From Burkholderiales bacterium (lineage in GTDB: Bacteria; Pseudomonadota; Gammaproteobacteria; Burkholderiales; Burkholderiaceae_D), in the NCBI GenBank assembly GCA_016177875.1, contig JACOUL010000008.1, positions 79,432 to 143,431 of the forward strand: a DNA stretch of 64,000 nucleotides, given 5' to 3'. A program made the position numbers and the translations under genes. The notes beneath the pieces are model-generated. The model made no database searches and was not told where the DNA came from. It saw only the letters and a list, made by a program, of their open reading frames with translations. Positions 8,650-27,528 of the stretch are shown here, one piece after another. Within the stretch, counting starts at the first letter, position 1. Each line of letters begins with the position of its first letter.

Positions 8650-8659
8650 GGCGCTCCCC

Positions 8660-9841
8660 TTACTTCGCCAACGCGACTTTGGCCGCGGGAGCGGGGGCAG
8701 GCGCGGGTGTAGAAGCGGCCACCTGGATCGGCGCGCCGGGGAAGAAGATCCGCGCCATGCCGTCGACGATCACTTCATCGCCCGCTGCCAGGCCCTGCGT
8801 GACGATCCAGCCCTCGGCCGACTGCTCGCCGACTTGCACCGGCTTAGGATTGGCTTTGCCGTTCGCTGCTACATAGACGAACTTGCCTTGCGGTCCTTCC
8901 AGCACGGCACGCGCAGGCACGCGCAAGGCTTGCGGGCGGACTGCGCCGAGCAGGCGCACGCGCACGAACTGGCCCGGACGCATGACGCCATCCGGATTCG
9001 GAACTTCAGCTTCGGCCTCGATGGTGCCGGTGGTGCGCGAGACGCGCGTGTCGGAGAACAAGAGCTTGCCTTTGCGCGGATAGACGCTGCCGTCGGCAAG
9101 CTTGACTTCTACTTCGAAGGCTTCGCGCTTAGGCAATTGCAGACGGCCCGCGGCCACCTCGCTGCGCCAGCGCATCTGGTCGGTGTCGGCGATACCGAAG
9201 CGGATCTTGATCGGATCGGTTTGTGTGACGGTAGTGAGCAGCACCTGCGGCCCGGACACCAATGTGCCCTCTGAGACTTGCGAGCGGCCCGCCATGCCGG
9301 CGATCGGCGATTCGACGCGCGTGTAGCCGAAATCCAGCGCAGCTTGCGCGCGCACTGCCTTCGCGCGTTGCAGGTCGGCGCGCGTCACCGCTTCCGCGGA
9401 CACCGCCTCGTCGTAGTCGCGCTGGCTGGTGGCCTGGGCTTCCCACAAGGGCTTCAAACGCGCAAGAGTACGCGCGGCTTGCGCATGGCGCGCCTCGGCG
9501 GCGGCCACCTCGGCGTCGGCGCGATGCAGTGTCGCGCGCAGCGGTTCAGGGTCGATGCTGTAGAGAGACTGTCCGTGCTTAACCGGCCCGCCTTCCGCGA
9601 AATTGCGCTTCAATAAAATGCCAGACACACGCGCACGCACTTCCACGTCGCGCGAGCCGGCCGTCTGGCCGACGTATTCATAAATTGCGGGCACGTCGGC
9701 AGCGGCGACCTTTTGCACGGCCACTTGCGCCGGCGGCATCCCCCCCGCGCCGGGCGAGGAACCATTGGCAGGGCTGCATGCAGCCAATACCGCCGCGATG
9801 GCCGGCGGCGTCAGAAGAAAAGCGAGGCGTTGTGCGTACAT
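8660..9841 (-). CDS. RND efflux periplasmic adaptor (membrane fusion protein, AcrA/MexA family)
   Basis: Lipoprotein-type signal (LAAC), coiled-coil hairpin and beta-barrel segments. Start chosen at MYAQRLAFLL, preceded by GGAAGAGGA. Confidence 0.85.
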   Translation of the reverse strand: MYAQRLAFLLTPPAIAAVLAACSPANGSSPGAGGMPPAQVAVQKVAAADVPAIYEYVGQTAGSRDVEVRARVSGILLKRNFAEGGPVKHGQSLYSIDPEPLRATLHRADAEVAAAEARHAQAARTLARLKPLWEAQATSQRDYDEAVSAEAVTRADLQRAKAVRAQAALDFGYTRVESPIAGMAGRSQVSEGTLVSGPQVLLTTVTQTDPIKIRFGIADTDQMRWRSEVAAGRLQLPKREAFEVEVKLADGSVYPRKGKLLFSDTRVSRTTGTIEAEAEVPNPDGVMRPGQFVRVRLLGAVRPQALRVPARAVLEGPQGKFVYVAANGKANPKPVQVGEQSAEGWIVTQGLAAGDEVIVDGMARIFFPGAPIQVAASTPAPAPAPAAKVALAK

Positions 9842-9970
9842 GGTATTCCTCTTCCTGTTATGCGGCGGCAACGGCTATGCATTCCTCTTGAATAATCTGA
9901 GGGCGAGAACCGTCGAATTTGTTAAAGACAATTGGGTTGATTAGTAATATACTGGATGAGATGTTCTTAG

Positions 9971-9985
9971 TCAAGAATGTCTTGA
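9971..9985. promoter_or_regulatory. Perfect palindrome TCAAGA-ATG-TCTTGA in the divergent marR / RND-operon intergenic region (candidate MarR operator)
   Basis: 6-3-6 inverted repeat read directly from the sequence, inside an AT-rich promoter region between the two divergent genes. Confidence 0.4.
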
Positions 9986-10020
9986 ACGGGAACAAATCGG
10001 CAAGAAAAGTGTCGGAGTGA

Positions 10021-10599
10021 TTGCACTTATCTCGACACCGAACCAAGCTGAGCTTATCCTTCGCATATGAAATGCATATGAAAAGCATGAAAAAATCGAC
10101 CGCCAAGACTTGTAGCCATGCAGCCCCGCCGCGCTGCGCAGGCCGCGTCACGCCCGAAGCCGATCTGACCTGGCTGCTGCATCGCGCTGCCCACCGCATG
10201 CGGGCGGCGATGGAGGAGCAAGTCGAGAAGCACGACATTCAACTGCGCGACTACCTCGTGCTTACCGCTCTTGGCGGAGAAGCGCAAACTACGCAGCTCG
10301 CTTTGGGACAGGCAATGGGTCTCGACAAGACTACGATGACATCGCTGCTCGATCGTCTCGAACAGGAAGGGCTGGTTGTCCGCTGCTCCGTTCCGCACGA
10401 CCGCCGTGCCCGCATACCGCAGGCGACCGACGCCGGCCGCGCTCTGCAGGCCAAGGTGGCCAACGCGCTTGCGCGCGTCGAATCCGAATTGCTTGCGGCG
10501 TTCAGCGCAGCGGAACAGCACTCCCTGCGCTCCATGCTCTGTCACATCATCCGCACCGGCGAAGGGTCCGACACCCACATTTCCGGCTCCTGCGTTTGA
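10021..10599 (+). CDS. MarR family transcriptional regulator (likely repressor of the divergent RND operon)
   Basis: Winged-helix MarR core (LRDYLVLTALGGEAQTTQLALGQAMGLDKTTMTSLLDRLEQEGLVVR...DRRA). The true start may be the internal M near 10078-10090. Confidence 0.75.
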   Translation: MHLSRHRTKLSLSFAYEMHMKSMKKSTAKTCSHAAPPRCAGRVTPEADLTWLLHRAAHRMRAAMEEQVEKHDIQLRDYLVLTALGGEAQTTQLALGQAMGLDKTTMTSLLDRLEQEGLVVRCSVPHDRRARIPQATDAGRALQAKVANALARVESELLAAFSAAEQHSLRSMLCHIIRTGEGSDTHISGSCV

Positions 10600-10632
10600 G
10601 CTGACTGTAGAGAATACGTGGCGCTGCATAAC

Positions 10633-10983
10633 TTATGCACCCGCCGCCTGATCCAAGACCAACTCCCGCACCGGCCGCACTTCGATGCTGCCGTATTTGG
10701 CAGGCGGAATGCCGCTTGCGATGCGGATCGCATCGTTCAGATCGACGGCATCTACCAGATAGAAGCCGGCGAGCTGCTCCTTGGTTTCGGCAAACGGGCC
10801 ATCGTAAAGCGATATCTGTCCGTTGCGCACCCGCACCGTGGTGGCGGTGTGGACCGGATGCAGCGGCTCGGCAGCCAGCAGCCGCTTGCTTTCCACAAGC
10901 TGCTGCGCATAGGCGGCACAGTTGGGGTCCGGGCAGGCACTCCAGTTTTCTTGATCGAGATAAACCAGGCAGAGATATTTCAT
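10633..10983 (-). CDS. YciI-like / DGPF domain protein
   Basis: MKYLCLVYLDQENW... is a typical YciI family start. AGGAG RBS upstream. Co-oriented directly downstream of the ECF sigma gene. Confidence 0.65.
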   Translation of the reverse strand: MKYLCLVYLDQENWSACPDPNCAAYAQQLVESKRLLAAEPLHPVHTATTVRVRNGQISLYDGPFAETKEQLAGFYLVDAVDLNDAIRIASGIPPAKYGSIEVRPVRELVLDQAAGA

Positions 10984-11251
10984 TGCAACTCCTAGAGTAA
11001 GCACTTGGTAGAAATTCAATCCAATGCAAACGAAGCCGTTTTCAATGGGCCGGCGCGGCGAAACACGCAATATACGACGCCGTCGCTGGTCTTCGAACAT
11101 GCAGTTACAGTCAGATAGGCGATAGGATGGGGCATGTCGGTTTCCTTTCCGTTGATAATGTGTAATTTAAGAAGCTGGGATGACTTCCTTGTTACTAGTC
11201 GAACGGCGCTGATCGATTTCGACAATGCTCCGAAAAATTTTTACGAGTTTT

Positions 11252-12484
11252 TTAAGCTTGCAGTTCGGCAAGCCGGCGGCGAATGAAACGCCGCTCCGGT
11301 TCCTGCTTGGCGAATTTGAGCGCCCGCTCGTAGGCGTCTCGTGCTGCGGCGGCGTTGCCGATGCGCCGGCAAAGATCTGCCTTGGCCGCGTGCGCCAAAT
11401 GATAGGTGGACAGCGCTTCCTGTCCAAGCAAGCTTTCCACGAGCGCCAATCCGGCTTCCGGGCCATTGCACATCGCCACCGCTACCGCGCGATTCAGTTC
11501 AACCACCGGCGACGGTTCCAATCGCAACAGTGCGTCATACAAACCGATGATCTGCGGCCAGTCCGTATCCTCTGCGCGTGCGGCCTCGGCATGGACTGCC
11601 GCAATCGCCGCCTGCAAGGCGTAAGGGCCGAAGCGGCGCGAGCGCAGCGCACTTTGCACCAAGTCGCAGCCTTCATTAATCAGCGCCGCATCCCAGCAGC
11701 TGCGATCTTGTTCATCCAGCGGGATCAGGTCGCCGCCGGCCGTGACGCGTGCAAGGCGGCGCGACTCATGCAAGAGCATCAGCGCAAGCAGTCCGGACAC
11801 TTCCGGTTCGGGCAACAGTTCCTGCACCAGGCGCGCCAGCCGAATCGCCTCGCCCGACAAATCGGCCCGCAAGACCGCATCGCCCGACGATGCGGAATAA
11901 CCTTCGTTGAATACCAGATAAATTACGCGCAATACGCTAGGCAGACGGTTGGATAATTCATCGATACCGGGCACCTGGTAGGGAATGCGCGCATCGCGAA
12001 TCTTGGCTTTGGCGCGTACGATGCGCTGGGCCAGGGTCGGCGCCGCAAGCAGGCAGGCACGTGCGATTTCTTCCGTCGTCAGGCCGCATACTTCGCGCAA
12101 GGTCAGCGCGATTCTCGAATCTTCCGCAAGACTGGGATGGCAACAGGTAAAAATCAGGCGCAGCCGGTCATCCTCCAGCTCGTGCGCCGCTTCGCCCGAC
12201 TGCGATTCATCGGCGAGATTGTCCATGTGCTCGGCAACTTCATCCCAAGGCGTGAAGCGGCGCTGACGGCGCAGTTGATCGATCGCCTTGAAGCGCCCGG
12301 CCGATACCAGCCACGCAACGGGATTGGCCGGGACGCCTTCACCGGGCCAGCGCTCGGCTGCCGCGGCGAATGCATCATGCAAAGCTTCCTCGGCAAGATC
12401 GAAGCTGCCGAGGAGCCGAACCAGCGTCGCGAAAACACGCCGGGACTCATCGCGATAAATGGATTCCAAATTTGGGGCGGTCAT
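11252..12484 (-). CDS. ECF-type RNA polymerase sigma factor with long C-terminal TPR-like extension (ECF42-like)
   Basis: Start set at MTAPNLESIYRDESRRVF (ATG at 12482-12484). Sigma-2 and sigma-4 regions (LTLREVCGLTTEEIARACLLAAPTLAQRIVRAK). ~230-aa C-terminal extension. The DGPF/YciI neighbour is the ECF42 hallmark. Confidence 0.8.
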   Translation of the reverse strand: MTAPNLESIYRDESRRVFATLVRLLGSFDLAEEALHDAFAAAAERWPGEGVPANPVAWLVSAGRFKAIDQLRRQRRFTPWDEVAEHMDNLADESQSGEAAHELEDDRLRLIFTCCHPSLAEDSRIALTLREVCGLTTEEIARACLLAAPTLAQRIVRAKAKIRDARIPYQVPGIDELSNRLPSVLRVIYLVFNEGYSASSGDAVLRADLSGEAIRLARLVQELLPEPEVSGLLALMLLHESRRLARVTAGGDLIPLDEQDRSCWDAALINEGCDLVQSALRSRRFGPYALQAAIAAVHAEAARAEDTDWPQIIGLYDALLRLEPSPVVELNRAVAVAMCNGPEAGLALVESLLGQEALSTYHLAHAAKADLCRRIGNAAAARDAYERALKFAKQEPERRFIRRRLAELQA

Positions 12485-12682
12485 GATCGCTGACGAGAGC
12501 TCGCTGAAATGGGGATGGATGTCGATCAACTGATGCGTCGCGGAGTTGAACCGATATTGTAAATCGTGTACCCAACGGCAGATTACGTTACCGAACTGCC
12601 GAAATCTGTAAAAATCTTTCAGTACCAGAAAACGCGGACTACATAATGGTATGCTTGCAGCTGAATTTTTCTGAATAAGTCC

Positions 12683-13393
12683 ATGCGCCAAATCGTCCTC
12701 GATACCGAAACTACCGGCTTGAATCCCCGCTCCGGCGACCGCATCATCGAGATCGGTTGTGTAGAGATCGTCAACCGGCGTCTGACCGGCAATAATTTTC
12801 ACCGCTACACCAATCCGGAACGCGACTCGGAAGAGGGCGCGCTCGCGGTGCACGGTTTGACCACCGAATTTCTGTCCGACAAACCCAAGTTTGCCGAGAT
12901 CGCCGACGAGTTGCGCGATTACGTCAAGGGTGCGGAAATCATCATCCATAATGCGCCGTTCGACTTGGCATTTTTGGATGCCGAATTTGAGCGGCTGGGT
13001 TTGCCGGTGTTCAAAGAGCATGTCGGCCCCGTCGTCGATACTTTAGTTCAAGCAAAGGAAATGCATCCGGGTAAGCGCAACTCCTTGGATGCGTTGTGCG
13101 ACCGCTACGGCGTGTCGAATGCCCACCGCACCTTGCACGGCGCTTTGCTCGATGCGGAGTTGCTGGCGGAAGTGTATTTGGCGATGACGCGCGGCCAAAA
13201 CAGCCTGACGATCGATTTGGCCGAGCCTGCAGCACAAGCGGCCGGCGCTGCCGCTGAAGGCGCGGCGCTGATCGAAAGCATCATCGTCTTGGCTGCGAGT
13301 GCGGAAGAGATTGCCGAGCATGAAGCGATGCTCGACAAGTTGGACAAGGAAGCCAAAGGCACTTGCGTCTGGCGCGCCGTAGCCGCGAATTGA
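12683..13393 (+). CDS. dnaQ: DNA polymerase III epsilon subunit (3'-5' proofreading exonuclease)
   Basis: MRQIVLDTETTGLNP...HNAPFDLAFL...HGALLDAELLAEVY: DEDDh Exo I-III motifs. Conserved rnhA/dnaQ neighbourhood. Confidence 0.9.
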   Translation: MRQIVLDTETTGLNPRSGDRIIEIGCVEIVNRRLTGNNFHRYTNPERDSEEGALAVHGLTTEFLSDKPKFAEIADELRDYVKGAEIIIHNAPFDLAFLDAEFERLGLPVFKEHVGPVVDTLVQAKEMHPGKRNSLDALCDRYGVSNAHRTLHGALLDAELLAEVYLAMTRGQNSLTIDLAEPAAQAAGAAAEGAALIESIIVLAASAEEIAEHEAMLDKLDKEAKGTCVWRAVAAN

Positions 13394-13431: not shown

Positions 13432-13506
13432 GGGCGGTTAGCTCAGCGGTAGAGCACTGCCTTCACACGGCAGGGGTCACTGGTTCGAACCCAGTATCGC
13501 CCACCA
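13432..13506 (+). tRNA. tRNA-Val (anticodon CAC)
   Basis: Manual cloverleaf: acceptor stem GGGCGGT/ATCGCCC; D-arm GCTC..GAGC; anticodon stem CTGCC/GGCAG with loop TTCACAC; T-arm ACTGG-TTCGAAC-CCAGT; discriminator A; encoded CCA. Confidence 0.85.
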
Positions 13507-13514
13507 AATAAATC

Positions 13515-13548
13515 AAGGCCTTACGAGTGATCGTTTGGCCTTTTTTTT
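13515..13548 (+). terminator. Rho-independent terminator downstream of tRNA-Val
   Basis: AAGGCC...GGCCTT hairpin followed by a T8 run. Confidence 0.5.
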
Positions 13549-13605
13549 ATACGTGGAATTTGGCACATAATTGGCACAACGAGGTTTTTCCTTGGAGATC
13601 CATTT

Positions 13606-13686
13606 ATGGCGAATATTCAGAAGCGTGGAATCTATTGGCGTGCCCAGGTTAGGCGTAAGGGCTATCCTCGTACGCGAGCTGGTTAA
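13606..13686 (+). pseudogene. Remnant of a tyrosine integrase (N-terminal ~26 codons only)
   Basis: MANIQKRGIYWRAQVRRKGYPRTRAG* resembles the arm-binding N-terminus of tRNA-associated phage/island integrases (M..IRKRG..WQAQVRRKG..). No integrase-like continuation in any frame downstream. Confidence 0.5.
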
Positions 13687-13893
13687 ACATGATTGGGCTT
13701 TGACGGACAAAGTGACGCTCGCGGGATTTCCAATTCATAAGTGGACGGATATACCGCGTTCACTTGATAAGAATGGTCAGCAGCGATTTGACCTATTCGC
13801 TTTTGTTTTGAAAGAGTATTCGTCGGCGGCCAATTTTTCGATCGGCAGATAGTGAATCTCGATCCGTAAAAAAGCAGGGATTTTGGAGGAGCG

Positions 13894-14256
13894 ATGTCCG
13901 AACAGACCAAAGTGCAGCCGAGCTTTCGAGTTCACTACGAGAAGCTCGATTCGCCTGTCCGATTAATGCAGGAATTGCGAAGTGATGTCAAATTTGATGA
14001 CGACGCCTTAAACAACTTCGTTTGGATGATTTGGCCAAAATTTGAATGCGAAATAGATTCGCCGATTGAAGAAGGCATTGAGGCCGCGCCAGTCGGAACT
14101 GCAGTGATGCTGATTCTTAATCAGAACCCAGACTACAGAGCCATGCTACGAACAAGATTAAAAATAGGCGCAACTGGTTATTTTGTCGGCGGCTCAATGA
14201 AAATCGCGAAATTTGAAATAACAGAATTGCTTGGGGACGAAGCAAAGGCAAAGTGA
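13894..14256 (+). CDS. Hypothetical protein (island)
   Basis: 120-aa ORF in the low-GC island. Overlaps the next ORF by ATGA. Confidence 0.5.
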   Translation: MSEQTKVQPSFRVHYEKLDSPVRLMQELRSDVKFDDDALNNFVWMIWPKFECEIDSPIEEGIEAAPVGTAVMLILNQNPDYRAMLRTRLKIGATGYFVGGSMKIAKFEITELLGDEAKAK

Positions 14257-14723
14257 TGAGAGTAGCTGTTGAAAACATATTGAAGGAGATGTTGTCTCCT
14301 CATGGCTTCAGCCTGAATGTGTCCAAGGAAGCCAGGGAATATGTTCGAGAAAGAGCAGGACTTCTGGAAATTGTCGGAACGCGCAAGAGTCGTAAAGTCT
14401 CCGGACAGACGGCGGTATATTTTTCAGTGGAGGGAGGAAATCTCGCCGAACCGCGGACTTATGAGATTTCCCACGTCGCTCCGTTCAAGAATACATGGTG
14501 GTGGTCAAAGGGTTCATCCGAAGTTGAATGGGCCGGGCTTAGGCAACAACTTAGCTCCGTAGTGCTGCCGTATCTGGTTTCGCACGAGTCCGAATTCGAC
14601 GAAGCGCAGGCCCGTGAAGACGTTCATCAAGGTTTGTCTTTCCTTAACGCGAGCAACCCTTCATTTGAAAAAGTTGAGAATGCATATTGGCGTAAGCGCG
14701 GCAGCATTATTGATATGCAGTAA
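14253..14723 (+). CDS. Hypothetical protein (island)
   Basis: 156-aa ORF, translationally coupled to the upstream ORF. No recognisable motifs. Confidence 0.5.
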   Translation: MMRVAVENILKEMLSPHGFSLNVSKEAREYVRERAGLLEIVGTRKSRKVSGQTAVYFSVEGGNLAEPRTYEISHVAPFKNTWWWSKGSSEVEWAGLRQQLSSVVLPYLVSHESEFDEAQAREDVHQGLSFLNASNPSFEKVENAYWRKRGSIIDMQ

Positions 14724-14907
14724 ACCATACTTGACCTGGTAACCTCTGTCCGCTTTCATCGCGCATTGAAACTAGCCGAGCTTCCGAGATCAGCGAATTT
14801 CGTTCGGTAAGGCAATTATGTTATAAATTCCTCGTGGCGGCGTGCCGCAGCGATGTTAGCTACTAAAATGGCGAACACGTCACTACGCTCGCAAGCCTTC
14901 GACGTGA

Positions 14908-15663
14908 TTGAACCAGCACGTTCGGCAAATAAGAAATTTGAATTACATGAATACGACTTGGTACGAAGACGCTATGCAGTCAAGAGAGGTCGCCTTAATT
15001 GCGCGTTTTGGCCCGTACTCTCCTGAAGACAAAGTCTTTAAGCCACAAAATCAAGCGCTGGAAACAGCAATTCCAGGATTTGCCTTTCTTCGCTTTCCAC
15101 CTTCCGAAGGGCGGCCTTTTTGGCTTTATATTACGCACGGATTATCTCAACCATCCGAACCTGAGGAAAGCGAAAAACGTGATCAAGAACGTCTTTCAGG
15201 TTTTGGCATCGAGTTTGCGCTAGCTACTAGAGTTGAAGAAGCATGGCCATTTACGATGTTAGAGGCTCTGACCTCATATGCACTTCAAGGTATAAAGCCA
15301 GTGCTTCCATGGGATCGCGTTCCCTCAAGTGACCTAATGGAGAACGCGCCAGGAGGCCACCTGCTTGCACTTCAGGCGCCCGGCTATGACACCCAGATAA
15401 TCACAGCCACAGGAAAATTTCATATTGTTCACCTTGTAGGTGTGACCTCTGCGGAGGTGACGAAAGCCAAACTGCGGCCCGGCGTAGAAGGGAGCAAAGC
15501 TCTAGAGTGCGTCCTCCATCGACTAAATGTGGGCTGTGTCACTGACAGGAAACGAGAATGCTTGACTGATTCCATGGAATTTGAGGCGGCATGGGTAGCT
15601 TGCAACGAACAGCCTGCGCTCATAAATGACGAAAAAAAGAAACCATTTTGGAAAATCTGGTGA
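14908..15663 (+). CDS. SUFU-like (Suppressor-of-fused family) protein, candidate polymorphic-toxin immunity protein
   Basis: PFWLYITHGLS, GFGIEFALAT and AWPFTMLEALTSYAL align with the conserved SUFU N-domain blocks (HWHYISFGLS / GFGFELTFRL / PTWPAELMQGLARY). The true start may be MNTTWYEDA at ~14947. Confidence 0.55.
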   Translation: MNQHVRQIRNLNYMNTTWYEDAMQSREVALIARFGPYSPEDKVFKPQNQALETAIPGFAFLRFPPSEGRPFWLYITHGLSQPSEPEESEKRDQERLSGFGIEFALATRVEEAWPFTMLEALTSYALQGIKPVLPWDRVPSSDLMENAPGGHLLALQAPGYDTQIITATGKFHIVHLVGVTSAEVTKAKLRPGVEGSKALECVLHRLNVGCVTDRKRECLTDSMEFEAAWVACNEQPALINDEKKKPFWKIW

Positions 15664-15677
15664 CGCTGTGACGGAGC

Positions 15678-16409
15678 ATGAAATTGATTAGTTGTTCATG
15701 GAGGACTGGCCCAGAATTGAACGCGAAAACTCTAATTTCACTAATCCTTTGTTGGTGCATCCCCGCAGCGAACGCTTTGGCGGATGAGTTTGGCGAAGTT
15801 CAGCAATTGGCGCGAGCCTTCTTTATACGCGCAGGCACCGTAGAAGGGGACATTCAGGGCGTATATCTCAATTCACTTTCGGGCGGTTTGCCAAACAGCA
15901 AAAACGTGGAACAGGTAGCAGACGTCGCATTCCGCGTACGCGGACAAGGCACGCGCTACGTGCAGCTCTTCCAAATAGCAGGCAAATGGCAAGCGCTACG
16001 CATGCTGCCAGCTAACCAGCTGGCAGCGGCTAATCCCCAATTGATTGAGGAGTATAGACACGAGTATTGGCGCGAGACGGCACGCATGGAGCAGCGCATT
16101 GCCGCAGACTTACAGACGAGGCTGATCGCCGAGAAGAAGATCGATGATGTCAAATTCGCTCGTCCGCGCTGCTTCGTCGACTTGAAACACAACAAAGCGC
16201 TCTGCGACATCTTTTACCAGACGTGGTTGAAGCCCGAGCCGCAGTGCACCAATGCGGCTCGGCTGTTCGCACGCCATAACGGACAGTGGAGTGAAATTTC
16301 TGGCAAATATCATTCGGGGAAGCGTATCAATCCGAACAACGGCGAGGTTTTCACCATGATCTCAGAGCGGGAGAGTGCCGAATTTTGTCAAGCAAAAGGG
16401 GCACCGTGA
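15678..16409 (+). CDS. Hypothetical secreted protein (island)
   Basis: 243 aa. Hydrophobic N-terminal segment ending ...PAANALA (signal-peptide-like). Confidence 0.45.
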   Translation: MKLISCSWRTGPELNAKTLISLILCWCIPAANALADEFGEVQQLARAFFIRAGTVEGDIQGVYLNSLSGGLPNSKNVEQVADVAFRVRGQGTRYVQLFQIAGKWQALRMLPANQLAAANPQLIEEYRHEYWRETARMEQRIAADLQTRLIAEKKIDDVKFARPRCFVDLKHNKALCDIFYQTWLKPEPQCTNAARLFARHNGQWSEISGKYHSGKRINPNNGEVFTMISERESAEFCQAKGAP

Positions 16410-16936
16410 ATAAATTTTTTGTACTCCTACTGGGGTTATTCGTTTTCTGTTCGGCCGGAGCACAATCTGCCATTTCCTCGGCGAGGAGAGAGCTTTCTCC
16501 CATGATTCACTTGGAAGTAAAACGCCTATCCTCTCAAGGCGATGCATTAACAAAAAAAGGGAGCTATGCTGAAGCTATAGAGACATACTGGAAGGCATGG
16601 GACTTATTGCCTGAGCCAAAACAAGAATGGGATGCAGGTTTATGGCTTTTGGCAGCAATTGGCGACGCGAACTTCTTGAATCGAGATTATGTTGCATGTC
16701 GAGACAATCTCTCAGTAGCTATGCATTTCAGCGGTGCCATTGGTAATCCCTTTTTACACCTTCGGCTGGGACAATGCCAGTACGAACTCGGCAACATGAA
16801 GCGCGCAGCGGATGAACTCGCGAGAGCCTACCTCCTCGAAGGGAAAAAGATCTTTAAGAACGATGATCCAAAATACTTGACATTTATTAAGTCGAAGCTG
16901 AAGCCACCGCCAGGTGGATGGCCAGAAGGATGGTGA
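16406..16936 (+). CDS. Hypothetical secreted protein with TPR-like helical repeats (island)
   Basis: GTG start preceded by AAGGGG. Signal peptide MNKFFVLLLGLFVFCSAGAQS. Helical repeat content (YAEAIETYWKAW...). Confidence 0.45.
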   Translation: MNKFFVLLLGLFVFCSAGAQSAISSARRELSPMIHLEVKRLSSQGDALTKKGSYAEAIETYWKAWDLLPEPKQEWDAGLWLLAAIGDANFLNRDYVACRDNLSVAMHFSGAIGNPFLHLRLGQCQYELGNMKRAADELARAYLLEGKKIFKNDDPKYLTFIKSKLKPPPGGWPEGW

Positions 16937-17441
16937 TAAATCAAAACTTCGAACGCCCGCTTCCCGAACGTCCGACCGATTAAAATGGGTCGAACTCGGA
17001 AGTTCGCAATCTGACACATCCTGTCGGGTCAAGTCACAGCTTATACAATTGATATTGTCGACGTAGAGTTTCTCGGCGACTCGCGGTTTGCATTTTTTTA
17101 CGCCTCTGTGTGGCACCGCTCTCTTGATCGTAGCGGTCCGATTTCCTGCCCAGATGATGTGACGCGAGCTGCGTCCCAGTCGCTGGGGATTGAAGCTGTA
17201 GATCCCGTTCCGTGTACTTCACTTTTCTATGTTGGCCCGCCAAGCGATGGCGTACTGATTCCTCAGTATGCGGCACTCGAATCTGTGGCCCTCAGTCACT
17301 TCGGGAAGATAACGAAGCCGATGGATGTGTGGGGGCAAATACGCCCTGAATTTCGATATATGTTTAAGATGCCGACATAATATCGTTGCTTTCGCCAGCA
17401 AACATGGCGGCAACCTAATAAGCTTAAACTAAGGGGGGCAC

Positions 17442-18125
17442 ATGCCACCGTCAATCTGCGTTACCAAGGATAAATTACTAGAGTATGTCGTTCTTGAAGA
17501 AGACGAGGATACCGCTGTCTTACTCAAAGCCTCAAGCTTCCTATACATTGGTGCCGCCGAAAAAGAACATATTACGTATCACTACTGGAGCTACCCCACG
17601 TCTTGCGGTGTCGCATGGGTCTCGTTTTCGACCGATCTTACTATGAGAACGGAGAGTGAAGTTCCGTCTCACATTCAGTGCGCAACTCGCTCTCGCGACG
17701 AACATCCCATAAAGCAGACTGCGCCTCGCCATAAAATTCCTGTCGACCGCACACCAATAGCGAAGCCAGTTTTGATTCCCTATATGCTGGCTCCGGTCTG
17801 TGATTATTACCCGGTTTGGAACGAGAATATTCCGTTCGAAAACGCGGCCAATGCGTTCGAGGCCAAGCCAGTAACGGCGAACGTGGGGTACGTAGAATTA
17901 TCTTTCTGCGTTAAATTGTCCAGCGGACGGTTTGCACAATTGACTGCCCCAGCCCATCAGTCAAGTTCAGTATCGATTTCGCTGGAAATGTTTGAAGACG
18001 CAAGAAGTCGGGAGGACGAGAACTGCATAGGTTTTGTGCACGTTCAAGACATTAAAGAAATATTGGCGGTATTAGGGCGTGAGTACGTTGCTCCAACGGC
18101 TCGATATCCTTATGAATGGCGATAG
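17442..18125 (+). CDS. Hypothetical protein (island)
   Basis: 227-aa ORF with GGGGG RBS. Low GC. Confidence 0.45.
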   Translation: MPPSICVTKDKLLEYVVLEEDEDTAVLLKASSFLYIGAAEKEHITYHYWSYPTSCGVAWVSFSTDLTMRTESEVPSHIQCATRSRDEHPIKQTAPRHKIPVDRTPIAKPVLIPYMLAPVCDYYPVWNENIPFENAANAFEAKPVTANVGYVELSFCVKLSSGRFAQLTAPAHQSSSVSISLEMFEDARSREDENCIGFVHVQDIKEILAVLGREYVAPTARYPYEWR

Positions 18126-18200
18126 CCAGTTGACAAAAGCCTTGAGCGCGAATCCTACCAGATTCGTATTGAGCGAAATTGCAAAGGCGGAGGAGCCGAA

Positions 18201-18683
18201 ATGCTTTCGTGGATAGAACAAATGATTGGTTTGACTCCTAAGGCCAAGGAAAAGGCCAAGCAAATGGAGCAGAAGGCAAATGAGCTTGCATTGGTGTTGC
18301 CTTATGTCGTAAATCGCCAAGTTCTCGCTCTGATTCCCAAAAAAAAATGCTTCGACTGGACGAATCAGTGGAATGAACGTTCCAAAGTGGAGCGCCCTTT
18401 GGATGTGGGCCGTGATCAATGGTCTTATACCCGGTTTTATCTGGTTCACGGACAACTCAAATCGGAAGATCTGCCAGCACTTATAGCGAAACATCGAAAA
18501 TATTTCCTGAAATCTTACGTTGATGGATATGCCCCAAAATCACTGTGGCCGTGGGCGCCGACGGAAGATGAGTTTTCAGAGTGGTACGACGCTGTGCTGA
18601 TTCCAGGAAACGTTCACGATCTCGACGAGTCCTTATTAGCCAAAGAGCCGGATATTCTTAAAGCAATAACCCACCAATTTTAA
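18201..18683 (+). CDS. Hypothetical protein (island)
   Basis: 160-aa ORF. No recognisable motifs. Confidence 0.45.
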   Translation: MLSWIEQMIGLTPKAKEKAKQMEQKANELALVLPYVVNRQVLALIPKKKCFDWTNQWNERSKVERPLDVGRDQWSYTRFYLVHGQLKSEDLPALIAKHRKYFLKSYVDGYAPKSLWPWAPTEDEFSEWYDAVLIPGNVHDLDESLLAKEPDILKAITHQF

Positions 18684-18690
18684 ATAATAA

Positions 18691-19302
18691 ATGCAGAGGC
18701 TATCAATGGAGATTTCCAAGCTAATCAAAAAGATAGATGCACTGCCAAAGAGTATGTATCTTGAGTTTGACGGCAAAACTTACAAGAAGACTTATAAGCA
18801 TACGTTTTCGCCAGGGCTAAATAAAAATGATGTTGTTCAGGAATTGCTCAGGCTTTGGGTGCCTTTAGATATTTTGGAAGAAGGATGGCAGGACCTCTAC
18901 CAAATTTCAAATGGAATTAAGCTGTTCCATAGCGAAAGTGAGGATGTAGATACCGGCGAATACTTTATTCCCTCCATAGAGCTACACCCTCTAGGCAGAT
19001 TGGCGGCTGAGACGGGTTATATGCAATCTGAAGTATTCCAGGAGATTGAAGATGGGGATGATCCCCCTGTTTATTCCAAAGGCGTAGCAATAGGAGAGGC
19101 GTGTGGGACAGGTAATCGTTTTATTCTGAATAGATGGGGTGAACTGTCAGGAAATATCATTTATGCGGACCATGATCCCGACATAAACGAATGGCATACA
19201 AAGGCGTTTTCGAGTTCGCTTGTCGATTTTCTCGAGCAATTATCGTCAGATCCGTTTTCCACTCTTAGTCGCATTAGTGGTGCAGATAAAGTTTGGTTTT
19301 GA
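18691..19302 (+). CDS. SMI1/KNR4 (SUKH superfamily)-like protein, candidate immunity protein
   Basis: VAIGEACGTGNRFILNRWGELSGNIIYADHD matches the SUKH signature (I..d.gGn...d....G.V...dHe). C-terminal SLVDFLEQL is also SUKH-typical. Confidence 0.55.
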   Translation: MQRLSMEISKLIKKIDALPKSMYLEFDGKTYKKTYKHTFSPGLNKNDVVQELLRLWVPLDILEEGWQDLYQISNGIKLFHSESEDVDTGEYFIPSIELHPLGRLAAETGYMQSEVFQEIEDGDDPPVYSKGVAIGEACGTGNRFILNRWGELSGNIIYADHDPDINEWHTKAFSSSLVDFLEQLSSDPFSTLSRISGADKVWF

Positions 19303-19368
19303 TGCTAATTCGAATGGGAAAAATGAAACGCCTGATTTGGCTCTGAATGAATTGAAAAAGGGTGAGGT

Positions 19369-21009
19369 ATGGGAGCGTGGGGAACCGGCATTCTGGATAA
19401 CGATACTGTTAGAGACGTAAGAGATCAGTACAGAGATCGGATAATTGCCGGTGACTCTGATGAAGGCGCAACAAACGAAATATTTCAGGAGTGGGGAAGC
19501 ATTTTCAATGAGGATGCGGACGGTGACGTATTGCTTGGGCTAACCTACGCCAAACTTGAAACCGGACGGCTAGATGCCGCCACAAAGGAAAAGGCAATTT
19601 CTTTTCTGGAAGGCGGCGGCGACCTCGATCTTTGGGACGAAAAGGCTAAAAAACGTAGAGCTGCGGTTCTTCAGAAATTTCTAGCAAAACTTCAAGCGGT
19701 CGATATTAAAAGCCAAAAGCCCAAAAAGCTTCGCGCACCATTTCTCGCGGAGTGTGATTGGCAAGAAGGGGAATACTTGGCATATCGCTTGTCTTCAGGC
19801 GAATATCTGGTTCTGGTGGTTATCTTGTTGGTCAATGATGTGTCTATGGGCACATTTCCATCCGTTGGCATAATCGGTAGAACTTTCTCCTCTATAGATT
19901 CTTTAGATGACATTGACTTGCTTCCATTGGCGCCTTGCTCACTTAGTCCAAGTGGAGTCGAGCGGTTTCACATCTATGAGGAGCGACATGATCGAATACC
20001 GCATGACCGGGTCGTTCGGCTAAACAAAAAAAGAAATATTACCGCCGATATGAAGTCGGGGACGCATGGTGGGACATTTTGGGTCTCTTTGGAAAAGTAC
20101 ATTCACCAATACAGATTTCCCGATACCCCTGGGGTAGTGAGCCTTGGTGATCGCTTTGCTCCGGATACCTTTGGAGGCGTTATCGGTGTCTTGCGCAACA
20201 CTCAGTTTTCTGTTGAAGCCAGAACTCAACATCCGCTTGCAGGCTTTCAACAAAAATCCGTTGGAATTAGTGATGGCAAAACACCGGGAGCGATATATCA
20301 AACAATGCTCGCGAATATGGCGCTTGGCCATTGGGACAAAAGTCTTAGTTTAATTAGTGAACTCAAGCAACTTCTGCCGAAGGAAAACATGCAGTTTGAT
20401 TTGGCGATACGCGAGGCACAAGCTAATTTGCAAAAAGGTCTTCCTTTAGATGAAATAGTCAAGAGTTTAGAAGCCTGGCAGAAAAATGAAAATGTCATCG
20501 GTTTAGGTATGTATGAGGTGCGGCTAAGTGCTCTCTATTTCATAAATGGTGATTTTCAAAAAGGTTTGGCCCTTCATAGGGCTGCAATCGACTTAGGAAA
20601 GCATGACAGCATGAAGTGGCTTGATCTCGCTTTAGCTGAAGCTCAGTATGGGGATCTCGCAGCGACTGAAGATTCTTTAAGCCATGTAGAGATCAATCAG
20701 GTTGCAAATTTCGCGTTGCCATTTCTGAGTTGGGCAAGGGGTATTGTTGCATTTGGAAAGGGACAACACGCAGTCGCTTCAATGTACTTCCTTAATGCCA
20801 TAGGTCCGATATTGGCGCGTCGAACAAATCCCACAATTTGGAGTTTATTAGCGCTAATTTCTGGTTGGAGTGCACTCACATTAAAGGCGCAAGGACTAGG
20901 CGACGAAGCTAAAGCACTTACCCAAGCTGTATGGCCGGTATTAAAAGTACAGGGTTCGAAGAAATTGTTGGCATCGTTGAGCGAGGGCCAATTGACCGGA
21001 ATTATGTAG
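19369..21009 (+). CDS. Large hypothetical protein with DUF4259-like N-terminus and helical C-terminal region
   Basis: N-terminus MGAWGTGILDNDTVRDV is characteristic of DUF4259 proteins. The remaining ~430 aa are helical-repeat-like. Confidence 0.5.
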   Translation: MGAWGTGILDNDTVRDVRDQYRDRIIAGDSDEGATNEIFQEWGSIFNEDADGDVLLGLTYAKLETGRLDAATKEKAISFLEGGGDLDLWDEKAKKRRAAVLQKFLAKLQAVDIKSQKPKKLRAPFLAECDWQEGEYLAYRLSSGEYLVLVVILLVNDVSMGTFPSVGIIGRTFSSIDSLDDIDLLPLAPCSLSPSGVERFHIYEERHDRIPHDRVVRLNKKRNITADMKSGTHGGTFWVSLEKYIHQYRFPDTPGVVSLGDRFAPDTFGGVIGVLRNTQFSVEARTQHPLAGFQQKSVGISDGKTPGAIYQTMLANMALGHWDKSLSLISELKQLLPKENMQFDLAIREAQANLQKGLPLDEIVKSLEAWQKNENVIGLGMYEVRLSALYFINGDFQKGLALHRAAIDLGKHDSMKWLDLALAEAQYGDLAATEDSLSHVEINQVANFALPFLSWARGIVAFGKGQHAVASMYFLNAIGPILARRTNPTIWSLLALISGWSALTLKAQGLGDEAKALTQAVWPVLKVQGSKKLLASLSEGQLTGIM

Positions 21010-21061
21010 CAGCCGCACAAAGCGTTTTATATCAATAGCTTACTGAGTTTTTCCGCATAGC

Positions 21062-21101
21062 CAATCAGTTGGAGGAAAAATTCGCAAATTCTCAAAACTT
21101 C
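21062..21101. terminator. Imperfect hairpin between convergent genes (candidate bidirectional terminator)
   Basis: GTTGGAGGAA...TTCCTCTAAC 10-bp stem (1 mismatch) with ~20-nt loop. Confidence 0.25.
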
Positions 21102-21103
21102 CT

Positions 21104-21628
21104 CTAACTATTTTCCGCAAGCACCGGCTTCCATCCGTTTGCAGTAGCGTGCGCGTAGCAATGCCTCAATGCATGCGCATCATGCAACGCATGATGCTTC
21201 GGCCGCGCAGGGCCGAAATAGCCATCCATCACTTTCTGTAATGCCGGCTGCCAATCGTCGCCCATCGACCATGTAGTGAACTGGATTGGCCAAGCATCCA
21301 AGTTCGCCGGCCACGGCGTCAACAATCGCTTTAGCTGGCCGAAGAAATCGGCGTCAGGGCAGTCGGTAACGATTACGGCCATTTCGGGAAGTTCGTTAAT
21401 CCATGCCGTCAGCTTTTCTCGTGTGACGACCTCGGACTGGACGTATTCGCCTCGCCATAGATGCCGTACCACGTTGAAATGCACCCACTCGTTGCATTGA
21501 ACCGTCCAGTGTTCTTCGGGCAGCTCCGCGTAGAATTCGCGGCCGTCTTCGTTAACCAGGGCAATCGAAATCAAATCAGGCTTGGCCTGATTGATGCCTG
21601 TGAATTCCGTGTCCAGGAACAGTAGCAA
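21104..21628 (-). CDS. DEDDh 3'-5' exonuclease, Rv2179c-like family (paralog 2)
   Basis: LLLFLDTEFTGI...DLISIALVNEDGREFYAE...HHALHDAHAL: Exo I (D-x-E) and Exo III (H-x4-D) motifs with the Rv2179c-like N-terminal block. Start proposed at TTG 6 nt after the upstream ORF's stop. The ATG-extended ORF at 21772 would overlap the upstream ORF by 139 nt. Confidence 0.6.
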   Translation of the reverse strand: MLLFLDTEFTGINQAKPDLISIALVNEDGREFYAELPEEHWTVQCNEWVHFNVVRHLWRGEYVQSEVVTREKLTAWINELPEMAVIVTDCPDADFFGQLKRLLTPWPANLDAWPIQFTTWSMGDDWQPALQKVMDGYFGPARPKHHALHDAHALRHCYAHATANGWKPVLAENS

Positions 21629-21633
21629 TTGAA

Positions 21634-21912
21634 TTATCCGACCGCCGGTGGTGCTTCGGTGATCTCGTACATTTGCAGAATTTCGTGGCGGGCCAAGTGG
21701 CGCAAATTCGCTTCGTTCGCCAGGATACTCTTCTCCTGGTCGACTTGCGTTTCCAAGAGATCGAGATAGCAATCGGCGTCGATCATCGCCTTGACGCGAT
21801 CCGGCCAGCCAAGCATCCAGCGGTTTGCGATGGAAACTGCCATAGCGCCCATCGATTCGATTCTAGCCGCCACTTCGGTGGGGTAATTTGCTCGGTAGGT
21901 CAAATCTTCCAT
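21634..21912 (-). CDS. Small hypothetical protein upstream of exonuclease paralog 2 (possible partner/antitoxin)
   Basis: 92-aa ORF. Its stop lies 6 nt before the exonuclease TTG. No recognisable motif; not VbhA-like. Confidence 0.4.
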   Translation of the reverse strand: MEDLTYRANYPTEVAARIESMGAMAVSIANRWMLGWPDRVKAMIDADCYLDLLETQVDQEKSILANEANLRHLARHEILQMYEITEAPPAVG

Positions 21913-21952
21913 GTTATCGCTCGTTATTCAATTTAAAGGAATCTGACTACGT

Positions 21953-22411
21953 TTAAGACGCGGGCGTAAAGCCGAACTTGTTGGCTAAACTATCGTAGAG
22001 CGCATGATGTTGGCGCCCGCTCGCACAGTTCTCAATGTACCAAGTGAACTTGGCTTGATCAATTTGGTTGCGGATATCGCGCGTGGCTAACCATGCCGGC
22101 AGATCGCCAATCAAGTCGCGCAACAATGTGATATCCCTTGCCAAGTCATAGCAAAGAACTGGCGTTTCATCGGCAAACTGAAGCAGCCAGCCATTTACTT
22201 TTTGCGCCAACTCGCTTTTCGTAAATACGGAGTCGGCCTTTTGTCCGAGCTGAGGCAATACCGTGCTCTTGACGAAGGCGCTGCATCGATCAACCGAGTA
22301 ATCGTTTCGCTCGCCGTAAAACTGGCGCCCGTCTTCGCTCACCAGTCCGATGGAGATGAGTTCGGAAGGCGAGTCGAAGTCGGTGAATTCGGTATCGATG
22401 AAAATGTTCAT
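21953..22411 (-). CDS. DEDDh 3'-5' exonuclease, Rv2179c-like family (paralog 1)
   Basis: MNIFIDTEFTDFDSPSELISIGLVSEDGRQFYGE...HHALYDSLAN parallels the Rv2179c N-terminus (..FYDTEF...ELISIGVV.EDGREYYA) and has the Exo III H-x4-D motif. Its ATG overlaps the upstream TGA (ATGA). Confidence 0.7.
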   Translation of the reverse strand: MNIFIDTEFTDFDSPSELISIGLVSEDGRQFYGERNDYSVDRCSAFVKSTVLPQLGQKADSVFTKSELAQKVNGWLLQFADETPVLCYDLARDITLLRDLIGDLPAWLATRDIRNQIDQAKFTWYIENCASGRQHHALYDSLANKFGFTPAS

Positions 22412-22590
22412 TTCAATCCAAAAACTTGATCTGTCACTTCGCGAACCTCTGCGATTGTGAGTTCGCCTTTGATATACCGATCCAGTAATGTACGAAAATC
22501 CGGCTCCGGCTCAAAGCCTTCGAGCGCGGCGCTCGCCAAGGTTTGCTCAACGAATTTTTTACGATCTTCTTCGGAAGTTTCCACACTCAT
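22408..22590 (-). CDS. VbhA-family antitoxin-like small protein (class I Fic antitoxin fold) without a Fic partner
   Basis: MSVETSEEDRKKFVEQTLASAALEGFEPEPDFRTLLDRYIKGELTIAEV carries the (S/T)xxxE(G/N) inhibitory motif (SAALEG) and the EP.P / GE-T/I VbhA-family pattern. AGGTGA RBS. The ORF-track start is an upstream TTG. Confidence 0.65.
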   Translation of the reverse strand: MSVETSEEDRKKFVEQTLASAALEGFEPEPDFRTLLDRYIKGELTIAEVREVTDQVFGLK

Positions 22591-22646
22591 ATTTTCACCT
22601 ATGCGCAGTGTTATAGGCGCCAATGTCAGTTTATGCCGGCTGCCGG

Positions 22647-25600
22647 TTATGCCGCAAGCTTGCCTGATTTGATCGGAGGATGATTGATCCGCTCAAATAG
22701 CGTTTCAAGCTTATCCGAAATCTCCTGCCTGGTCTCCTTGATTTCCGCCAGCAGGCCAGCTACTCGCTGTTCCTCCTTGACGAGTAAGGCAAGCGCTTTT
22801 TCTGCCAATTCCGGTGTTTCTGGAATCAGGGGCTTTGCCTGTTCTATCTCACCAAGCGTTGTCCCTTCCGGGAAGGTCTGGAACTGCCGGCGCAGCCATT
22901 CAATTGCCAGTTCCGGCTCAGAGGGAGCGATTTGCGCAACTTCCTGCTTGCCCGAGAATAGCCGATGACCACTGCGTACCAGCTTATGCACTTTCGCACT
23001 CGGCATAGAAATATGCAGCCCCCATTTGACACGAGCACGATCAATCGAAAGCCCTGGAATGTTCGCCGGGATATTCGCTGGCGCTTGCGCCATGCTGTCA
23101 TCAATTCTCCAGCCTGCTTTGCGCAGTGGCAGAAGCATCTTTTGAATGCCACTGGCCCGTTGCGCAAGTTGCGCAATAGCCGCCATGACTGCCGGATCGT
23201 CTGGAATGGGAATCGAAATCTGCCGAAGATCGTCTGGCTGCAAGCGTCCGGCGATGGCGCTGCGGTTGACGCCATCCAGCAAGGCGCGCATCTGCTGGCT
23301 ATTCAGGAACGCCAGCACATACCAAGGATCGATCTTGGCCGAATCTGTTTCCAGCATCTCGCGAATCGGTGCGCGATGATCGAGTTGGTTGCGAATCGAC
23401 TTGTTATCTACGCCTGCGAGATGACACCAGCGCATCAACAAAAACACGGAATGATTGCACTTTAAGAATCCGCCATCGTCCCAAGTGCCATCGTCATAGG
23501 CAAAGCCGCCGAATTCCGCGACCATCAGCTTGGGGCGGTCGTACAATTCGGGGAAGGTCGGACGCCTGACTTGTGCCGGTACTCGCGTTCCAGACCCGTA
23601 TTCCAGGTAGCGTACATTGATGATGCCGAAATAATCGACATCCTTGCTTCCAGCAAATGGCGCTGGATGCGCTGAATCCATTTGATCGGCTATCAGATCA
23701 TCAATCGTAAAGGCTCCTTTATTGGTTTTTTCATTCGCGTTGAGAACCATGCCTACGGAAATGTAAAAAATGTCCTCTAATGGGATCGCCTTCACGTTAT
23801 GCGCCAATGTCAGCGTCGGCAATTCCTGCCTAAATACGCTAGTCTTGTAATGCGATTGCCGCAGGTTCTGGCTGCGAGCGTGCGACAGGCTGCCCCACTT
23901 GGGCGCGGTCTCGTGCCAGAAGCGTTCCGTATGCGTGTGGCCAGTCGGCGGTCGGTTCGTGGCAACAGTAATGGTGTTTTGCACCATCGCGTCTTCAAAC
24001 AGTTTCACGCCGGGGAAGAAATGCACTTCATCGACTGTGGCGCGATTGACGAATAATTCACGCAAGCCATCGCAATAGGGCACGGTCTCGATGGCATTGC
24101 TGGTGATGATTGCCATTTTTCCCGCCTTGCCATGTTCGGATTCCTGCTTGAGCAGGTTGAGACTGGCCGCAACGAACGGCACGAACAAATCCCACTTGAG
24201 AACCATTGTGCTGCGCACGGCTTCGCTCGGATATTCCCGCTTGATGCGGTCACGATAGGAAAGCATCGCGTCGCTTTCGTTCGCCTTGACATAAGGCGGA
24301 TTGCCGACGACGAAATCGAATTTGTCCCTCCATTGCCCGATACCCGCCTTGATTTGATCTTCCTTCGGTAAATCTTCATCGGGGAATGGCAATGTCCCGG
24401 CCTGGCTTGCCAGCGTATCGGCGCTGAACGACAGGCTATCGGAGTTATAGATATGGAAGCGTTCGATCGTCGCTGGCTGATCGCCCTTGTGCGCAATGCT
24501 GAACAGGTCAATCACCTGAATCAGCAAGTTGGTTTCCGCCAATGAGCATGCGAAGGGGTTCAGATCGACGCCATGCAGACAATCCCTGATTTCATTCAGA
24601 ACGGTTTGCACTTCCTCGGCTGGCACGTGGCTATGCCCGCGCCCACGCCAGTATTCCCGATAGGCGCTGACCAGGCGGGTTGCCGCTTCGACGAGGAAGC
24701 CGCCAGAGCCGCACGACAGGTCAATCAGCTTCTTGCCGATGATGTCCGTTCCCTTATAGCCGATACGATCTAGCATAAAGGAGACAACATCAGGCGACGT
24801 GAAGTACATCCCGCTTTCATGCTTATGCTTGGCTTCGACGTACTGGTTATAGACGGTGCCAATGATGTCTCGGTTGATGTTGCTGAGATCGAAACCGGCA
24901 AGCTTATGTAATACCCGTACTACCGCATTCCGGTCAGGAATATACCAATCCAGGACGGTGCGCTCTGCGAAGAAATGCGCGTAGATGTGTTGTGCGGAGG
25001 TATACGCCAATTCAAGCAGGAAGTCGGCGCTGCGGCCCATTGCATGCTCCAGGTAGTGCGATTCCACTTGCCTGAACCAAAGCGACACGCCGCCGTTGGT
25101 GAACATCCGGTTGACCAGCCCCTTGTCTTCCATGATGCGCACCAGGAGGATACGGATGATGACCAGGTACGCCGTCTGCGCCAGGAATTCACGCCGCAAC
25201 AATTTGGCGTCGTCGGACTGAAACACGAGAGAAGCAGTCTTCTCTTTCCAAGTCTCGATATGGTGATAGACCTTGATACTCGCCTTGTGTTGCGCCTCCA
25301 GCTTGGTGAGATAACGGTAGCGCTTTTCCGTATAAGCACGAATCCGACTAATTAGAACGTAAATAGGGTCGCGGTCTGTGCCTTTCCCGGATTTGATCGC
25401 ATGCAGGGCATAGAGACGCCGCTCAATCTGCTTTAACTCGCCCATCAAGACATCGCCGTGCATGATTTTGCGCAGCAAGCCTTCATCGTATTCCTTGGTC
25501 TCTTTATCGGCAGCCACCATCAATTGCATGGCGGTTTGAATGAGATTGTCTTCCTGTTCTTGGAGCGTCGTGTTCTCAGTTGGTATCTTCTTCGAAGCAT

Positions 25601-27504: not shown

Positions 27505-27528
27505 ACGCTTTCCATGTCGGTTCCGGTA

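Follow-up and report, generated by a model that had tools for sequence, protein, structure and literature searches.

Nine genes in a decayed tRNA-Val island of a Burkholderiales bacterium: a candidate heterogeneous polyimmunity locus

Contig JACOUL010000008.1 (165,172 bp) is part of a metagenome-assembled genome (MAG) of an uncultured Burkholderiales bacterium, GCA_016177875.1, whose NCBI protein names carry HYS18_ locus tags. We analyzed 64 kb of this contig (positions 79,432 to 143,431), here called the window; coordinates below refer to the window unless another sequence is named. Nine open reading frames (ORFs) on the + strand, denoted O1 to O9, occupy positions 13894–21009 and make up the left arm of an island of 16.9 kb (13507–30378), whose limits are marked by a direct repeat, 45 bp long, of the 3′ end of a tRNA-Val gene. 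A preliminary description of the window had read this array as nine same-strand, immunity-protein-like genes of low GC content that follow an integrase remnant, have no cognate toxin and represent a stockpile of orphan immunity genes on a mobile island. What was observed there is partly confirmed by our analysis, and the interpretation is partly supported: we favor, with a probability of about 0.55, the view that the nine genes are cargo of a decayed tRNA-Val island and constitute, at least in part, a heterogeneous polyimmunity (orphan-immunity) locus.

The tRNA-Val(CAC) gene, identified by ARAGORN and by a 67-bit match to the Rfam tRNA model, lies at 13432–13506 (+). The 45 nt at its 3′ end (13462–13506, +) constitute attL, which was located by pattern search. 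At the right end of the island, pattern search and reading of the sequence revealed attR, a copy of the same 45 bp with one mismatch (30334–30378, +). In total, the pattern search returned two matches to the repeat versus zero expected. Directly after the tRNA gene, at 13606–13683 (+), a reading of the sequence confirmed that the integrase remnant preceding the array is real. It comprises 25 codons (MANIQKRGIYWRAQVRRKGYPRTRAG, followed by a stop), and this stub matches the N-terminus that tyrosine integrases associated with tRNA genes usually have. Neither the Pfam scan nor the gene calls revealed an integrase domain anywhere in the island. With the integrase down to 25 codons, the island is therefore no longer able to excise by itself. 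GC content ranges from 0.44 to 0.54 between the att copies versus 0.57–0.66 outside. For the nine array genes the range is 0.44–0.50, as low as had been claimed, and their GC at third codon positions (GC3) is 0.41–0.60 versus 0.70–0.84 in core genes (dnaQ, the RND pump, norB, nrdD and narG). Both GC and GC3 of the array are foreign to the host genome. Taken together, the att repeat, the tRNA gene, the integrase stub and the foreign GC and GC3 identify the element as a tRNA-integrated genomic island at tRNA-Val.

A 16,881-bp Logan contig (SRR12113422) begins and ends within the two att copies (window positions 13482 and 30362), and thus the assembly graph branches exactly at the island ends. 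Judging from these contig ends, the sample may also harbor tRNA-Val alleles that lack the island or have another occupant. An independent gene caller applied to this Logan contig, which derives from the same organism, recovered the same nine genes that had been described as a same-strand array, with slightly different starts for O2, O3, O4, O5 and O8.

The genes are arranged in three tight clusters (O1–O2, O3–O4–O5 and O6–O9) with gaps of 223 and 505 bp between them, and four of the gene junctions either overlap or leave fewer than 25 bp. The larger gap, between O5 and O6 (16937–17441), contains no called gene, only an uncalled 90-aa ORF at 17108–17380. The gap DNA showed no Rfam match and no similarity to plasmids, and the 90-aa ORF had no plasmid match in a tblastn search. 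We tested for paralogy among the nine proteins and found none. All nine were also searched directly against the profile libraries of Pfam, NCBIfam, PADLOC and PHROGs. These searches returned only the SUFU family for O3 and a sub-threshold TPR match for O5; none of the proteins matched any of the numbered Pfam Imm families, and none has an enzymatic or NTPase domain. Searches against PDB sequences, made with every ORF and with the alignment profiles of O8 and O9, gave nothing useful. Except for that of O5, every 90% identity cluster to which the array proteins belong is a singleton.

The clearest assignment is that of O3 (14908–15663, +), which encodes a protein of 238–251 aa, depending on the start codon. 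O3 matches the SUFU profile (PF05076) with an E-value of 9.8e-13 and 48.8 bits (cut-off 25) over nearly the entire model (positions 7–171 of 172), and the NCBI name of the protein is 'suppressor of fused domain protein'. Judged by this profile match, O3 belongs to the SUFU family (Imm-SuFu type), in agreement with the SUFU blocks noticed earlier. The sole plasmid homologue, in Novosphingobium, lies at a spot without an annotated feature, and no toxin gene linked to O3 is present in the island or in the window.

O8 (18706–19302, +; 18691–19302 with its alternative start) encodes an acidic protein, 198 aa from the start at 18706, that was harder to place. On its own it has no Pfam match even at E ≤ 10, and a word-indexed search of 5.8 billion proteins retrieved only O8 itself. 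Two scans of 185,579 species genomes did not reveal a close relative. A HMMER search against 1.84 billion cluster representatives, on the other hand, yielded 16 homologues, the best of them 55% identical. In an alignment of 15 sequences, consisting of O8 and 14 homologues with E-values from 4e-65 to 7e-4, SMI1_KNR4 is matched by ten (best E-value 5.9e-8) and SUKH_6 by eight. An AlphaFold2 (AF2) model built with this alignment has a predicted local distance difference test score (pLDDT) of 94.8 and a predicted template modeling score (pTM) of 0.90. When the model was compared with PDB structures using Foldseek, ranks 1–9 were all SUKH proteins (BF1740, Knr4, FBXO3, YobK and Syd), headed by 3d5p (E-value 3.8e-4, probability 1.0), and below rank 9 there was nothing better than an E-value of 1. 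The NCBI name, 'SMI1/KNR4 family protein', agrees with these results. Transitive Pfam matches and the predicted fold thus identify O8 as a member of the SUKH (SMI1/KNR4) superfamily. The SUKH gene proposed in the preliminary description is thereby supported, albeit indirectly, through homologues and fold.

On a 2.8-kb metagenomic contig (L014, 559–2005), the gene for P0004, a homologue 48% identical to O8, directly follows a gene encoding a 266-aa Ribonuclease_T2 protein with a signal peptide. These two proteins may represent a secreted RNase and its intracellular inhibitor. The adjacency was seen in one of four contigs carrying O8 homologues; the other three are only 1–2 kb long and thus uninformative. 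None of the papers in the literature that we searched names both RNase T2 and SUKH, and we found no description of such a pairing.

O5 proved more informative than had been realized in the preliminary description, where its immunity-type family was not singled out. Its conserved domain begins before the ATG used by NCBI, as the alignment shows an invariant L37 upstream of M40. Further upstream there are just two start codons, GTG (16406) and TTG (16385). The former overlaps the stop codon of O4 (GTGA) and is preceded by an AAGGGG Shine-Dalgarno sequence. Starting there, O5 (16406–16936, +) is a TPR-like protein of 176 aa that acquires a Sec-like signal peptide, judged by eye and by hydropathy; homologues do not have it. 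Matches to TPR models in Pfam are weak and below threshold, and the O5 family matches no immunity family in Pfam or NCBIfam. Nevertheless, O5 has homologues in 108 plasmid or chromid records at 42–55% identity, and their neighborhoods are telling. In Bacillus mycoides p397, the start of the homologue is 13 nt downstream of a cassette for a 'GH-E family nuclease', within an array that also includes HNH-SMI1/KNR4, AHH-SUFU, Tdi1 and endonuclease-YezG pairs. In Ralstonia megaplasmids it comes after a VgrG-like gene, a DUF1795 gene and genes for proteins of 1521 and 192 aa. On a Hymenobacter plasmid it is found amid polymorphic-toxin HINT cassettes, DUF1629 and SMI1/KNR4, beside tssD. Since toxin-cassette or T6SS contexts were observed in four of six loci, representing three phyla, guilt by association provides good evidence that O5 belongs to an immunity family.

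Immediately upstream, O4 (15678–16409, +; 230–243 aa) has a Sec-like N-terminus (…KTLISLILCWCIPAANALA/DEF) according to hydropathy and direct reading. It has no match in the profile libraries, among PDB sequences or in plasmids. The signal peptides mentioned for some of the small proteins can thus be seen, by eye and by hydropathy, as Sec-like hydrophobic N-termini in O4 and O5, that of O5 only if translation starts at the GTG. A relative of O5 at least 90% identical to it (P0116, 176 aa including the signal peptide) is encoded on a 1330-bp contig from JGI sample 3300056388; its gene adjoins one of the LprI (lysozyme-inhibitor) family in a neighborhood unlike that in the window. Another contig, thought at first to carry an O5 variant, turned out to be 100% identical to the window and was set aside as the same organism in a sister sample.

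The last gene, O9 (19369–21009, +), encodes 546 aa with three regions: an N-terminal five-helix domain related to DUF4259 (denoted O9-N, residues 1 to about 120), a middle domain common to the Planococcus and Arthrobacter homologues (about 130–300) and a helical, TPR-like region (about 320–546). Full-length O9 has no Pfam match at E ≤ 1, and the word-indexed search of 5.8 billion proteins found only O9 itself. Its start, MGAWGTGILDND, had been taken for the DUF4259 motif. It does align to the beginning of DUF4259 (PF14078, positions 1–23 of 133), but the direct score stays below threshold (E-value 0.096, 14 bits versus a cut-off of 22.8), and the link depends on homologues. Residues 1–146 are conserved in plasmid-encoded proteins of Bacillus toyonensis, Planococcus, Shinella and Arthrobacter, with tblastn E-values down to 6e-10. 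A profile of O9-N and these plasmid homologues found 90 proteins, seven of which have a precomputed PF14078 match, and DUF4259 is matched by 25 of 50 aligned members of the O9-N family (best E-value 1.1e-6). Three members also show a weak match to Imm3 (E-value 0.018). The AF2 model of O9-N is a five-helix bundle with a pLDDT of 83.6, for which no significant structural match was found. Through its homologues, O9-N is placed as a sister or outlier group of the DUF4259 superfamily, below the threshold of Pfam itself. Its link to toxins is weaker and mixed. In B. toyonensis plasmids, Pfam-checked contexts put O9-N homologues at the distal end of a Rhs-barnase/barstar locus that also includes YxiJ and orphan fragments of Rhs. 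No toxin was found near the homologues on plasmids of Planococcus, Shinella and Arthrobacter.

The remaining four genes have no known family. O1 (13894–14256, +; 120 aa) matches nothing in Pfam, NCBIfam, PHROGs or PADLOC. A tblastn search of plasmids showed it to be 41% identical, over its full length, to an uncharacterized cassette that class 1 integrons carry between dfrA1 and aadA5 (L012, 5935–6399). These integrons reside on resistance plasmids of enterobacteria, including IncC plasmids, and the search yielded a total of 48 plasmid records. O1 also shares 32% identity with a gene that lies next to an RHH-PIN pair on a Leptospira plasmid. O2 (14253–14723, +; 155–156 aa), which was called as a gene independently, has a start that overlaps the stop codon of O1. 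Neither the four profile libraries (Pfam, NCBIfam, PADLOC and PHROGs) nor PDB sequences or plasmids gave a match to it. O6 (17442–18125, +) is an acidic protein of 227 aa lacking matches in the profile libraries, PDB sequences, plasmids and a scan of JGI metagenomes. O7 (18201–18683, +), a Trp-rich protein of 160 aa, likewise has none in the profile libraries, PDB sequences or plasmids.

The resemblance of O1 to a class 1 integron cassette, coupled with the single orientation of nine mutually unrelated genes, raises the question of whether the array is an integron-type cassette array (a cluster of attC sites lacking integron-integrases, CALIN), its small promoterless genes having been captured one by one. 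A pattern search for RYYYAAC-N40-130-GTTRRRY found no attC-like site on either strand of 13507–21200, versus 1.8 expected by chance. Moreover, the four junctions that overlap or leave fewer than 25 bp are too short for attC, and there is no IntI gene. Given the missing attC-like sites and the several overlapping genes, we rejected this explanation, whose chance of being right we regard as negligible.

We then considered whether a toxin accompanies the array. According to Pfam, no Rhs, CdiA, PAAR or VgrG is encoded by the 30 ORFs with a length of 150 aa or more between 21104 and the end of the window; these ORFs represent ordinary genes such as a type IIG/PglX-like enzyme, HepT/MNT, VbhA, IS1595, NorB, NrdD and NarG. 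The ORFs upstream (873–13393), judged by reading their translations, do not include a toxin either, and look like housekeeping genes, among them an RND efflux system. Finally, the Rhs YD repeat and the VENN and PxxxxDPxGL motifs are absent from all six frames of the window. The earlier statement that the window lacks an RHS, CdiA, PAAR or VgrG gene agrees with these three checks. In the same downstream region, a 434-aa multi-pass membrane protein (38512–39816, −) is encoded beside norB and genes for Rrf2/Crp regulators; it has no Pfam match at E ≤ 0.01, and the surrounding kilobase shows an unusual AT skew, 0.26.

Since the toxin absence covers 64 kb of the MAG and a matching toxin could sit elsewhere in the genome, the immunity genes are only putatively 'orphan'. 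This leads to another possibility, namely that the genes are not orphan at all, but provide cognate or back-up immunity against toxins encoded elsewhere, or that their toxin was lost together with the integrase. The window represents 64 kb of a 165-kb MAG contig, and an integrase cut to 25 codons implies that adjacent DNA has been deleted. Polyimmunity loci have also been described as reservoirs covering the organism's own toxins (PMC3482391). Yet the island has a foreign composition, clean att ends and no toxin inside. Furthermore, a cognate immunity gene is normally found immediately downstream of its toxin gene, and the B. toyonensis and B. mycoides loci are examples of this. On balance, we consider this possibility improbable.

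The right arm of the island (21104–29571), mostly on the − strand, is a defence and toxin–antitoxin block. It encodes two DEDDh exonuclease-like proteins (RNase_T, Rv2179c-like), a VbhA antitoxin-like protein without a Fic toxin beside it, a 1211-aa Eco57I/N6_Mtase enzyme of type IIG or PglX-like character, a pair formed by MNT and a HepT that is fused to a KfrB domain, a transposase of IS1595 and a regulator of the HTH_3 type. In such company, the array might be thought to consist of undescribed anti-phage defence or counter-defence systems, as the same island harbors the Eco57I/PglX-like type IIG enzyme, HepT/MNT, VbhA and the two exonuclease-like genes. However, not one of the nine genes matches PADLOC or PHROGs. 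Nor do they encode any enzymatic or NTPase domain, and the genes that can be classified fall into families of immunity to antibacterial toxins. An anti-phage role of the array is therefore very unlikely.

The families that could be assigned point instead to toxin immunity. Three of the nine genes (O3, SUFU; O8, SUKH; O5, TPR-like) are placed in toxin-immunity families on good evidence. Counting a possible DUF4259-like fourth, the array thus contains three or four unrelated immunity-type families and five unclassified genes. Zhang et al. (2012, PMC3482391) single out Imm-SuFu and Imm-SUKH as the immunity superfamilies of greatest versatility. According to the same study, unrelated immunity genes in tandem act as back-ups against the toxins of non-kin strains. 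Nine genes without paralogy fit the definition of a heterogeneous polyimmunity locus given there. In Bacteroidales, divergent orphan SUKH genes located on mobile elements are reported to confer protection in experiments (PMC12247911).

If the array is a polyimmunity locus, each product would be a small binding protein, constitutively made by the host, that would block one class of toxin domain delivered by neighbors via type VI secretion (T6SS), contact-dependent inhibition (CDI) or Rhs, or as secreted toxins. We infer toxin binding from the families, and would extend the same role to the unclassified genes only by analogy. O3 and O8 would be acidic cytoplasmic proteins belonging to the two superfamilies that neutralize toxin domains, nucleases and others, most broadly. 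O5 would be a TPR-like binder, with relatives that follow toxin cassettes, translationally coupled to the exported O4, and both proteins would function in the periplasm. O9, a larger protein in which TPR-like repeats are joined to a DUF4259-like domain, may be a binder with several domains. O1, O2, O6 and O7 could either encode immunity proteins from families not yet described or be unrelated cargo. A bolder version of the same idea would have most of the array (O2, O4, O6, O7 and the middle domain of O9) represent undescribed immunity families, DUF4259-like domains form a hitherto unrecognized immunity superfamily, the O8 clade act against secreted toxins of the RNase T2 type, and O4–O5 protect the periplasm; as a whole, this version seems to us rather unlikely.

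Several observations weigh against the polyimmunity interpretation. Five of the nine genes (O1, O2, O4, O6 and O7) cannot be connected with any family of immunity proteins, and the nearest relatives of O1, the integron cassette and the Leptospira plasmid gene, have no toxin nearby. To call all nine genes immunity-protein-like was thus an overstatement. DUF4259 had been counted among established immunity families, but the literature that we searched documents no immunity role for it, and O9-N homologues on Bacillus chromosomes are located among housekeeping genes with no toxin nearby. For O5, two of the six contexts (Burkholderia and Paraburkholderia) show no toxin. SUKH and SuFu domains are also found in non-immunity roles, as in Syd, Knr4 and eukaryotic SUFU. 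About 100 kb of the contig and the other contigs of the MAG lie outside the window, leaving 'orphan' unproven. Lastly, expression of the array and protection by it are hypothetical.

Some of these observations also fit another explanation, according to which the array is miscellaneous cargo: accessory genes gathered by accident in a decaying element, among them two or three immunity-type passengers, with no common function. That five of nine genes lack a family and that O1 is akin to an integron cassette are what one would expect in this case. Similarly, the gaps of 223 and 505 bp divide the array into three units, and the right arm holds unrelated modules (the type IIG enzyme, HepT/MNT, VbhA and IS1595). 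Against this, three to four of the four to five classifiable genes point to toxin immunity, which is more than random cargo predicts. In addition, small, unrelated, same-strand genes in tandem, without enzymes or transporters, are a hallmark of polyimmunity (PMC3482391). We therefore regard miscellaneous cargo as a less probable explanation for the array as a whole, although random cargo is plausible for the five unclassified genes. Of the proposed stockpile of orphan immunity genes on a mobile island, what holds is the att-bounded island, the presence of some immunity-type genes and the absence of a toxin nearby; its extension to all nine genes does not hold.

How does the array compare with known systems? 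Like the described polyimmunity loci (PMC3482391), it is a same-strand tandem of unrelated small proteins that includes Imm-SuFu and Imm-SUKH, with some TPR repeats, some signal peptides and no enzymes or complex subunits. Such loci, too, often lack an adjacent full-length toxin. The array differs from them in that only three to four of its nine genes can be tied to immunity families, its sequences are extremely rare, and it is located in a tRNA island whose integrase is dead. With the AID-1 and rAID (acquired interbacterial defence) systems of gut Bacteroidales, as summarized in PMC12247911, it shares the location of an immunity array on a mobile element and the presence of a divergent SUKH protein. 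The AID systems lie in genomes without the cognate effector, and their SUKH proteins are reported to protect; for the array in the window, the lack of a cognate toxin gene in the genome and protection are putative. The array also occurs in a different phylum, has no active recombinase and shows no repeated intergenic structure. The orphan toxin/immunity cassette arrays found downstream of Rhs, WapA or T6SS effectors, here in B. mycoides p397, B. toyonensis plasmids, Ralstonia megaplasmids and a Hymenobacter plasmid, have O5 and O9-N homologues, SUFU and SMI1/KNR4 in common with it. In those arrays, however, the main toxin gene is retained and orphan C-terminal toxin fragments lie between immunity genes; the array in the window has neither.

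Because the concept of the polyimmunity locus is already well established, the value of this example is incremental, and nothing in the array overturns current understanding. Experimental work on such arrays has so far been done mainly in gut Bacteroidales. The present locus offers testable hypotheses, in particular that the O5 family may act against GH-E or T6SS-Rhs toxins and the O8 clade against RNase T2. If functional, the array would extend island-borne orphan-immunity arrays to environmental Betaproteobacteria and would supply several very rare candidate immunity proteins.

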